Source: Euglena gracilis (Eukaryota). From it: a DNA stretch of 64,000 bases. Below the pieces are notes generated by a model. That model saw only the letters and a program-made list of their open reading frames with translations. It was not told where the DNA came from and made no database searches. How positions within the stretch are numbered: position 1 is the stretch's first letter; each line of letters starts with the position of its first letter. Location of the stretch: the NCBI GenBank assembly GCA_039621445.1, contig CP154954.1, positions 22,766,954-22,830,953 on the forward strand, in the 5' to 3' direction. Positions 54,538 to 57,500 of this stretch are shown one piece after another. A program made the position numbers and the translations under genes.

Positions 54538-57500
54538 ATGGGGGTAGGGCGGTGGCTTGGGGCCATCGCCGCCCTGCTCGCTGCGGTGCCCGGCGCCGCC
54601 ACCCCGGAGGGGCGCACCGCCTGCAAAGCCCTGGCGCTGGCGACGCGGCATTCCCTGTGGGCGTTACCCGTTACAGAGCCTCGACCAGACCCTGGTCTGG
54701 GAGGGGGCGAAGACACTGTTCAACGCCGGGCTGGGGACAGTATCAGAAGCGTACCACCTGTGATGCTGGTTTGACTGGTTTGACTGGGGGCAGCTGGAAT
54801 TCCCCCGGGGTTGCCAACATATTAAAATACATCCAGCCTGGCTGCCATGTTCTGTGCGGTGAATCAGTTGTTTTAATAGGAGAATGTTTCTGCCACCGGG
54901 GGGGGGGGGGCGCAGGCTTTCCCGCAACCCGATGGTGTTTGCCGCCCCCCCCCGGGTGGGCTGGGCGGGCCCCCACCGCCCCTCAGCCCAGGTGGGCCGG
55001 GGGCCAGCCATGGGCAGCCGGCGGGCCGTGGGCCGCACCCCCCGCCCCAGCCCTGCCCCCACCCCGCCCCAGGGGGGGGGCCTCAGTGCCGCCCAGGCGG
55101 CGCGGGCGGCTGTGGGCCACCGCTGCTTGCGGGGCTCGGCATTCCCCCCCCGTAAGTGGGCCCGCCCTGCAGAGCCGATGTGGTGAGGGGCGTCTTTTTC
55201 AGCGGGGGGACCCCCGCGCCCGGGAGGGGGACGCTGGTCCCTGGGGGCCCCGGGCCCCCCTATTGCCGGAGCCACCCGGCTGTGCTGCGTGAGTTGAACG
55301 GGAGTGTCATTGGTGCTGCACCCAGGCCAGGGGCGGGGCTGGCGCGGGCCCCTCCCCCGTTGCCTGGTGGGAGCCCCCCCCACCGGTGCGGCCCCTCCCC
55401 CCGCGCAGGGGGGTGGGTGGGGGCCACTCGCCCGCTGTGGCCCGCCCGCGGCTGCAGGGGCCGCCCCTGCACCGTGCGGATTGTTGGGTCACCGTTTTTC
55501 GCCCCACCCCCCGCTTGTGGGCCGGCCCCCCCCCCTGTGGCCGGGCTCCGACTCCAGGTGCGGCACCGTGCGCTGGGCCATTTGCCCCCCATGCTCGCAC
55601 AGCCAAGCCTCCCCCCCCCGTGTGCCAGCTCCCTCCTGCAAGCTGGCCCCAAAGGCCCCACGCCTCCACCTTCCTCCCCCCCCTCCCCCCCCCCCCCCCC
55701 CTCCTCCACCCGGCCTCTTCCGGATTCTCACACCGGCAGCCTCCCATCCACCACCGCCCCCTCCCCCTCCCCCTCCCCCTCCTGCGTTGTCCGCGCCCAC
55801 CGGTCCCCCACGGCCTCCCGCGGCTGCAATCTCGGCTCTGCCCGCCCCCCGCCAACCCCTTCGTACCCCGCCACTGTCCCTTGTGGAGCTGCCCAGGGCC
55901 CAGATGGCCCGCCGTCTGGGGGTTCTCACACCCCCTCTGCTGTTGATATCACGTTCCCTGAAATGCATCTCGTGAGTGATCCCCATTTCTGACTGGTTTT
56001 CGGCCGAGCTCTGGCACCGGCGGACTGTGGCGGAGTCCGGTCCATTGAGCAGGCGGAGGATGGGAGCTCAGGCGGGGTATTCTTTCTGCATTTTGAGGAC
56101 CACAGCCACTGCACTGCATGAGGTTGATGCAATACCCGTCTGCAATAGTTTTTCTCCAAAAAACAAGTGTGCAAATCAAATCCAGGACAGTGTGTGTACG
56201 CGCACGCACACACACACACACACGCGCGCGCGCACACACACAGACACCCACCCACCCACCCACCCACACACACACACACACACACACACACACACACACA
56301 CATGCACGCACGCACGCACGCACGCACGCACGCACGCACGCACGCACGCACGCACGCACGCACGCACGCACGCACGCACGCACGCACGCACGCACGCACG
56401 CACGCACGCATGCACACACAGCACATGCACACAGCATTCAGAATGAGAGGAGGGAAGAGGGAGAGCACAGGGGGAGCATTCTTCATGCTGGCAACACGCC
56501 GGCGCGCTCAGTACCCTTTCAAAAACTCTATGCTTTTGGAAGCAGCCCTCGGCAACGAGTGAGCCGCTCCAATCTTGCGGGGGCCCTTTGGCTGACTGCA
56601 TCGGCAGGGGTGGCGGCGCAAGCCGAGCCAGCGCAGTGCCCCGGACCGGGTGCTGAAGAGCTCCTCGGCCATCGCCGCCGAGGCCTTCGCGGCAGGCCTG
56701 GCGGACAGGCTTCTTTTTACGTCCCCTGCCCCCTGGGGGGGTTGGTTGGGTCCGGGCCGGACCCCCCGGGGGGGGGGGTCCCACGCCAGAGGCGCTGAGT
56801 ATACCTTTTCGGCGCGAAGCGCCGAAAATTTTTGAAAATTGCCTTTAACGGGCCCGATTTTGGGGGGGTCCCCGCCCCCCCCCCCCCCCCGAGGGGGGGG
56901 GGGGGGGGGGGGGGGGGGGGGGTGGGGGGGGGGGGGGGCGGGGGGGTGGGGGGGCGGGGGGGGGGGGGGGGGGGGGGGGGGGGGGGGGGTGGGGGGGGGG
57001 GGGGGGGGGGGGGGGGGGGGGGGGGGGGGGGGGGGGGGGGAGGGGGGGGGGGGGGGGGGTGGGGGGGGTGGGGGGGGGGGGTGGGGGGGGGGGGGGGGGG
57101 GGGGGGGGGGTGGGGGGTGGGGGGGGGTGGGGTGCTGGCGGAGCGTCTCGGGGTGTGCGCGCCGCGCTGCGCCGTCGCGGCCTGGCCCTCGGCGCAGGCC
57201 GTCCCTTCCCCCGCCCGGTGGTGGACCTGACGGCATCCGAGGTAGCACCGGCTGACACAGAGACGGGTCGTGTCAAATTGGGTCGAGTTGGTTGTCGTCC
57301 CAGAACCTCCCCAAAGATTCAATTTTGGGCAGTTTTGGAGAGGTGAAATTTTTTGGACGTACGATGCACCCGAAGGGATAAAATCCCCCTTGGGATTGGC
57401 CAAGGTTGGTATCCCCAAGGAAGGGTCACATGGTCAACTTGCTAATTTTAGCCCCATTGGCAAAATCACTCAGAAAACACATAGGCTGTGGACAAAATCA

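Follow-up and report, generated by a model that had tools for sequence, protein, structure and literature searches.

The question whether a non-conventional intron can be caught at its birth is raised by a 429-nt insert at positions 56706-57134 of a 64-kb stretch of Euglena gracilis DNA (64,000 nucleotides of contig CP154954.1, the whole of which is here called the window). An earlier note, made from the letters of the stretch, had described this insert as a newborn non-conventional intron derived from a hAT-like MITE (a miniature transposable element with inverted repeats) which had landed in a kinase exon. How the non-conventional introns of euglenids arose is a long-standing question, and the locus provides a concrete test of it. 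The explanation that we prefer, and to which we give somewhat better than even chances, is a recent and probably polymorphic MITE-like insertion into the last coding exon of a gene, with the right half of the element mis-sequenced. According to this proposal a non-autonomous inverted-repeat element with CAGGCT..TTTTTA termini and 8-bp target-site duplications would have inserted recently, its landing site probably being the last coding exon of an expressed gene on the plus strand. The assembly would show the filled allele, the right half of the element including the expected terminus ...AGCCTG being misrendered as about 240 nt of noisy poly-G, and empty alleles on both haplotypes elsewhere in the species would give the joined RNA without splicing.

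The insert lies between two exact copies of the 8-mer CTGGCGGA on the plus strand, the left one at 56698-56705 and the right one at 57135-57142, in agreement with the earlier note. The word itself is unremarkable, occurring four times in the window versus 2.4 times expected; identity of eight out of eight positions between the two flanks of one given insert has a chance value of 1.6e-5. Directly behind the left copy the insert starts with CAGGCTTC, i.e. with CAGGC, or with CAGGCTTCTTTTTACG in a longer reading of the left end. Positions 56706-56719 on the plus strand form a left terminal inverted repeat, CAGGCTTCTTTTTA, which is the terminus of a complete element found elsewhere in the window (A1) with two mismatches. 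When an exact duplication abuts a family terminus, as it does here, this is the hallmark of transposition, and a pure assembly artefact is accordingly unlikely.

The relatives of the insert were sought by scanning the whole window for pairs of CAG and CTG whose neighbouring bases are complementary in at least 10 of 12 positions. This yielded 27 pairs as compared to a mean of 2.95 in 20 shuffles, and other trinucleotide pairs gave 4 to 20. Two families emerged, all elements lying on the plus strand. Family A contains the complete 222-nt element A1 (47123-47344) with the termini CAGGCTGTTTTTTA and CAGGCTGTTTCTTA and the flanks GTGGCCCC and GTCGCCCC, which agree in 7 of 8 positions at register 8, and the 149-nt element A2 (51311-51459), which has a weaker inverted repeat and no clear duplication (4/8), its two termini having been found independently. 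The ends of A1 are predicted to close into a 15-bp terminal stem when folded as RNA. Family B comprises the 216-nt element B1 (40264-40479) with a perfect 16-nt inverted repeat, CAGGGCTGTACGGGAA, and a best flank repeat of 6/7 at register 7, as well as the 822-nt element B2 (46558-47379), which carries A1 nested inside and is bordered by GCGAGGAC and GGGACGAC (6/8). A probe made from the A1 terminus and allowing up to two mismatches found seven matches in the window versus 0.96 expected, a number reached by none of 100 shuffles. The arms of the insert, A1, and A2 can be aligned and have in common CAGGCT, a T run, C-run/G-run palindromes, and GGTCCGG; in the insert this layout occupies 56706-56761 on the plus strand. 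Register 8 gave the best flank identity in three of the five elements, the insert (8/8), A1 (7/8, chance value 4e-4), and B2 (6/8, chance value 4.4e-3). Together these findings support the assignment of the insert to a family of MITE-like elements which carry inverted repeats ending in CAG...CTG and are flanked by 8-bp repeats. Two window-wide counts have low power: exact 8-mer repeats flank CAG...CTG six times versus about 3.8 times expected, and a flank identity of at least 6/8 is seen in 2 of 27 CAG-type pairs versus 48 of 4135 others, the latter mostly microsatellite (pairing at least 10/12).

Two further candidates from the same search were rejected. The pair 6165/6345 belongs to a direct tandem repeat with a period of about 181 nt and does not mark a target duplication, and the pairing of 50667 with 51459 does not delimit an element, its flanks matching in only 2 of 8 positions. 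Inverted-repeat pairs with termini other than CAG were observed at 17935-20822, 13334-15888, and 52645-52944, with flanking 8-mers agreeing in 8/8, 7/8, and 6/8 positions, respectively; these are possibly other transposon families.

As to the class of the element, MITEs of the hAT type make 8-bp duplications and have short inverted repeats beginning with C/T-A-G, and 8-bp duplications are also made by other transposon superfamilies. The elements described here resemble hAT-type MITEs in the 8-bp duplication (8/8 for the insert, 7/8 and 6/8 for its relatives), in inverted repeats of 14-16 nt starting with CAGG, and in being small (149-822 nt), noncoding, and in one case nested in one another. 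They differ in that no transposase was seen in the 10 long open reading frames of the window, where a Pfam search gave only reverse transcriptase and RRM domains and neither a hAT transposase nor a dimerisation domain, and in that the right inverted repeat of the insert is missing. The name hAT had been derived from the 8-bp duplication and the CAG terminus, and we do not retain it. The term MITE is borne out by the left terminus, the family, and the duplication, and falls short at the right end.

What happens to the insert in RNA was followed on positions 56411-56892, on which two deep contig sets taken as DNA (X1 and X2) and the reads of two raw RNA runs (X21 and X24) had been mapped, out of 24 runs listed under one species label. 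In X21 all four reads which reach 56705 pass through the left copy of the duplication. Their consensus over the next 30 letters (agreement 1) is identical to 57143-57172, a 30-mer unique in the window. The joined RNA thus keeps one copy of CTGGCGGA, and no X21 read enters the insert from the left flank, i.e. passes from 56705 to 56706. The RNA depth of 1.41 in the bin 56700-56716 is the value given by four reads ending at 56705. At position 56667 each of two haplotype letters is present in two of four X21 reads. If these are the same four reads as at the joint, both haplotypes are joined, which agrees with two empty DNA haplotypes. Three X21 reads carry the sequence from 56723 onwards behind a different upstream sequence which matches nothing in the window, and a related copy is therefore transcribed elsewhere.

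The DNA contigs leave the window at the same base. In X1 a contig of 149 nt (record 2, depth 43.5, no difference to the window) lies on 56576-56705 and carries 19 further letters which do not fit the insert, and a 149-nt contig of X2 (record 10, depth 29.4), likewise identical to the window, does the same on the same positions, again with 19 letters not fitting the insert. The other haplotype is represented by a 92-nt contig in X2 (record 12, depth 29.1), which also departs at 56705 with 19 further letters, and by a 73-nt contig in X1 (record 4, depth 66.9), which ends at 56705. Besides the contigs leaving at 56705 there is almost no depth in the X1 bins of 56666-56699; in X2 the bin 56683-56699 has an unexplained excess depth of about 14. 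Neither X1 nor X2 shows a junction contig that would begin 30 nt ahead of the insert, and the first 28 nt of the insert are present in the DNA contigs at about single-copy depth. Since the contigs stop fitting at the exact base where the RNA jumps, the 19 letters beyond 56705 are probably the right flank, which would mean an empty allele. It is thus very probable that both haplotypes have uninterrupted alleles in other DNA data under the same species label, and such an allele would suffice for the joined RNA, with no need of splicing. It is for this reason that the designation as an intron caught at birth was not sustained. Of the checks suggested with it, the one on RNA yielded the joined product with one 8-mer in four X21 reads, for which splicing is not needed given the probable empty allele. 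Another one, on alleles lacking the insert, yielded contigs which diverge at 56705 and a joined RNA with a single 8-mer, the DNA letters beyond being inferred only. A single-letter difference was observed nearby: at 56551 the window has G and the DNA contigs have T in their entire depth (78.5 of 78.5 in X1 and 42.6 of 42.6 in X2), to be explained either by a difference between strains or by an error in the assembly consensus.

Several points weigh against the preferred explanation of a polymorphic insertion. The joint is covered by four RNA reads only, which come from about 5% of one run, X24 has zero reads on the flank, and the RNA sample may be of any genotype at the site. The agreement of the 19 contig letters with the right flank has been deduced and not seen, and X1 and X2 were labelled "DNA?" by guess; in their behaviour they are like DNA, being evenly covered over 56428-56631, a stretch on which neither RNA run has depth. 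As contigs drop rare variants, a filled allele may be present in X1 or X2, and the stop of the second-haplotype contig of X1 at 56705 could mark a branch to such a filled allele. Finally, the G tract described below may in part be real, since long C or G runs occur in X21 RNA reads (at the loose ends 56782 and 56870) beside copies of the repeat contained in the insert.

The insert is composed of four parts. The left arm, 56706-56761, has a DNA word depth of about 118-149, which is of the order of the single-copy flank. It is followed on the plus strand, at 56762-56891, by a single unit (about 130 nt) of a repeat with a very high copy number, for which the X1 DNA word depth is 1.5-2.2 million versus about 110 on the flank. 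This is about 10,000-20,000 times the flank depth, and the unit is weakly represented in RNA. The unit is bounded by C-run/G-run palindromes and contains a perfect 10-bp hairpin, TTTTCGGCGC-GAA-GCGCCGAAAA, at 56806-56828. Joints running back 129-130 nt in X2, X21, and X24 indicate that it also occurs in tandem; within the window there is no other copy, a self-BLAST of 56706-56892 having given homopolymers only. A short C16-GA link then leads to a noisy poly-G tract of 242 nt (56893-57134, plus strand; 229 G, 10 T, 2 C, and 1 A), which opens at the palindrome C16-GA-G30 and occupies the place in which one would expect further element sequence with the right inverted repeat. Its length exceeds that of the longest other homopolymer of the window, which has 21 nt, more than 10-fold. 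The right end is not an inverted repeat of the left one, 13 of 30 positions agreeing, for the most part C with C. Downstream of 56706 the window has no family A terminus on the minus strand. A perfect duplication speaks for a young insertion, so the missing right terminus is better explained by a sequence error than by decay, and the poly-G tract is probably a faulty representation of the right part of the element.

Whether the insert could be spliced depends on its fit to the non-conventional splicing code, which has been worked out by knock-ins in E. gracilis. According to the main text of PMC12501133 the code consists of a 3-nt spacer followed by CAG at one end and of CTG followed by a spacer of 5 (or 6) nt at the other, together with a purine as the first base of the next exon and pairing beside the motifs, and every single substitution tested in CAG or CTG abolished splicing. 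In the present analysis C-D-G at +4 to +6 (usually CAG) and C-H-G at -8 to -6 (usually CTG), or a 6-nt spacer, were permitted. The offsets of 3 and 5 nt assumed in the earlier note are thus the published, experimentally defined spacers. Cuts at 56702|56703 and 57139|57140 give C|G at both junctions, as claimed, and remove 437 nt, that is the insert and one duplication's worth of sequence. On the left side of this register (56703-57139) the spacer GGA precedes CAG at +4 to +6, and the acceptor side starts with a purine, G at 57140. On the right side the assembled sequence has GTG instead of CTG at -8 to -6, as had also been remarked before, within the doubtful poly-G tract (229 of 242 letters G). 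None of the nine possible registers has both motifs or GT-AG ends. As to the pairing of the ends, 3 of 12 neighbours are complementary, and in the minimum-energy fold 56706-56711 pair locally and not with the 3' end.

These data bear on the strongest of the rival explanations, a newborn intron, in which the element would be present in the transcribed alleles and be removed by non-conventional splicing at 56702|56703 and 57139|57140 together with one copy of the duplication. The RNA has exactly the sequence from before the insertion and no read crosses from 56705 into 56706; the left side fits the code with its spacer, its CAG, and its purine; and the CAG...CTG ends of complete family members are predicted to pair as RNA. 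If the right terminus were intact under the poly-G, every feature of the code would be present, and precise removal would be predicted. Against this stand the DNA contigs of both haplotypes, which leave at the same base as the RNA so that splicing is not needed, and the right end as assembled, with its GTG, 3/12 pairing, ends apart in the predicted fold, and none of nine registers fitting, the more so as all tested single substitutions in CAG or CTG abolished splicing in the knock-ins described in the main text of PMC12501133. A newborn intron at this site is therefore considered unlikely.

Less probable still is that there is no real insertion and that the 437-nt difference arose by an assembly, gap-filling, or consensus artefact. 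The exceptional length of the noisy poly-G tract, the independent DNA contigs which do not follow the window into the insert, and the disagreement of the window with all DNA contig depth at 56551 in both sets would suit such an artefact. It would not, however, put a family-specific terminus directly against an exact 8-bp target duplication, and the initial 28 nt of the insert are also found in the DNA contigs, with a depth of about one copy. The weakest rival, a real insertion with a truly long G tract (truncated, one-ended, or rearranged), making an unspliceable disrupted allele beside intact ones, is favoured by the frequency of C-run/G-run palindromes in the window (18), by the long homopolymer runs in RNA reads beside repeat copies, and by the palindrome at which the tract begins, and is nevertheless very improbable, as a two-sided duplication implies that both element ends were integrated by a transposase and no other tract of the window exceeds 21 nt.

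The gene into which the probably polymorphic insertion would have landed is transcribed on both sides of the joint. On the left a flank with a probable coding frame, ...VLKSSSAIAAEAFAAGLA, extends over 56645-56705 on the plus strand at an X21 RNA depth of four reads; its left limit of about 56645 was estimated from bin depths. On the right the frame continues with (E)RLGVCAPRC...ARWWT over 57143-57230, according to the RNA consensus and the listing of open reading frames, with the stop codon at 57228-57230. The joined plus frame reads ...AAGLA-E-RLGV..., as the earlier note had stated. This restoration of the frame is weak evidence, because in this GC-rich DNA all three plus frames, and at least one minus frame, run through the joint without a stop. 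The GC content of the third codon position is 0.88 to the left and 0.87 to the right of the joint, in phase across it, and likewise high in the antisense frame, which supports coding by the plus frame, with its stop at 57228-57230, or by its antisense. The insertion site is probably the last coding exon of an expressed plus strand gene. A kinase, as which this exon had been described, was not recognised: there was no Pfam kinase match in 10 frames of the flanks (E up to 10), in 10 upstream plus strand open reading frames, or in the 10 long ones, and the catalytic-loop patterns HRDxKxxN and DxKxxN are absent from all six frames of the 64 kb. The plus frame piece has 36 amino acids, below the 40-amino acid minimum of the protein homology search; the antisense frame of 65 amino acids gave zero matches to proteins with a length of 35-114 residues. 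The transcribed flank is directly preceded by a microsatellite, (CGCA)n/(CA)n, which takes up 224 nt (56201-56424).

Regarding known systems, the insert shares with the euglenid non-conventional introns, as these are described in the main texts of PMC12501133, PMC3935182, and PMC11282704, the CAG three nucleotides inside the 5' border, the purine which opens the downstream exon, and direct repeats at the borders which make the cut "slidable". Its complete relatives in addition have CAG...CTG ends predicted to pair as RNA. It differs by its 3' motif GTG, by the lack of terminal pairing, and by the probable empty DNA allele. A circular RNA form of the euglenid introns has been described. Short direct repeats were reported at the borders of 84.4% of introns in Euglena agilis (main text of PMC12501133), and "TSD-like" repeats (target-site duplication-like) and a MITE-like origin of non-conventional introns are in print in general terms (PMC3935182, PMC11282704, and the discussion of PMC12501133), which confirms what had been said of this proposal. 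A comparable case is that of the introners of Micromonas and other algae, which according to the main text of PMC11282704 are also non-autonomous DNA transposons whose geometry lets splicing remove the element and one copy of the duplication, so that insertions into exons are tolerated. Introners are, in contrast, spliceosomal, and the GT/AG which they co-opt is supplied by the element together with a duplication of 3 nt. The removal proposed here would be hypothetical and would use the non-spliceosomal CAG-CTG code with its spacers of 3 and 5 nt and an 8-nt duplication.

A more general idea is that the code, which cuts 3 nt ahead of CAG and 5 nt behind CTG, might be the RNA-level counterpart of an 8-bp-duplicating CAG...CTG transposition, and the present locus a segregating newborn example of it. 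If so, the cut offsets of 3 and 5 nt would add up to the 8-bp duplication, so that each exon insertion would be removed with exactly one copy of the duplication. The DNA half of this argument is provided by the window, in the form of CAG...CTG families with 8-nt flanking repeats of 8/8, 7/8, and 6/8. Searches of PMC and bioRxiv found no statement of the link between the two offsets and an 8-bp duplication, the sliding-distance figure of PMC12501133 and the supplements lying outside these searches. As applied to this locus the idea is doubtful; as a general hypothesis it is an attractive and testable lead. Should a culture with the filled allele make the same mRNA, the birth of an intron by transposition would be shown directly and the 3+5 spacing would gain a mechanistic reason. 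Should both the poly-G tract and the insertion be traced to faults of the assembly, joined RNA reads would need a check on DNA before introns are called from them.

The window contains some further features. A gene for an RRM domain (43219-43239 and 48307-48370) is interrupted by an intron of the conventional GT...AG type, which is about 5 kb long and has a pyrimidine tract. The first exon ends with ...HFEAFGA and the second one opens with VKQARVVVQDGKSRGFGFVTF, and the elements B2 and A1, one nested in the other, reside in the intron. As this intron, which was placed by homology, is of the conventional GT-AG type it provides no test of the non-conventional code. The N-terminal half of a second RRM is found at 49355-49726. 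Rfam gave 0 matches in the window at the gathering threshold, and a tRNA search gave 0 genes.

On the minus strand an open reading frame of 650 amino acids at 8954-10903 contains the reverse-transcriptase domain RVT_1 (E 6e-12). It is adjoined by two long minus-strand open reading frames at 4932-6239 and 6796-8748 without a Pfam match, and the three together look like a retroelement. Inside this region, at 6140-6400, lies the tandem duplication of about 181 nt mentioned above, the ends of which share about 65 nt; dropping one copy opens a minus-strand frame of 209 codons over the tested stretch. Throughout the window there are 78 G or C homopolymers of at least 10 nt outside the insert and 18 C-run/G-run palindromes (at least C5 followed by at least G5); several of these tracts lie in the arms of the inverted-repeat elements.

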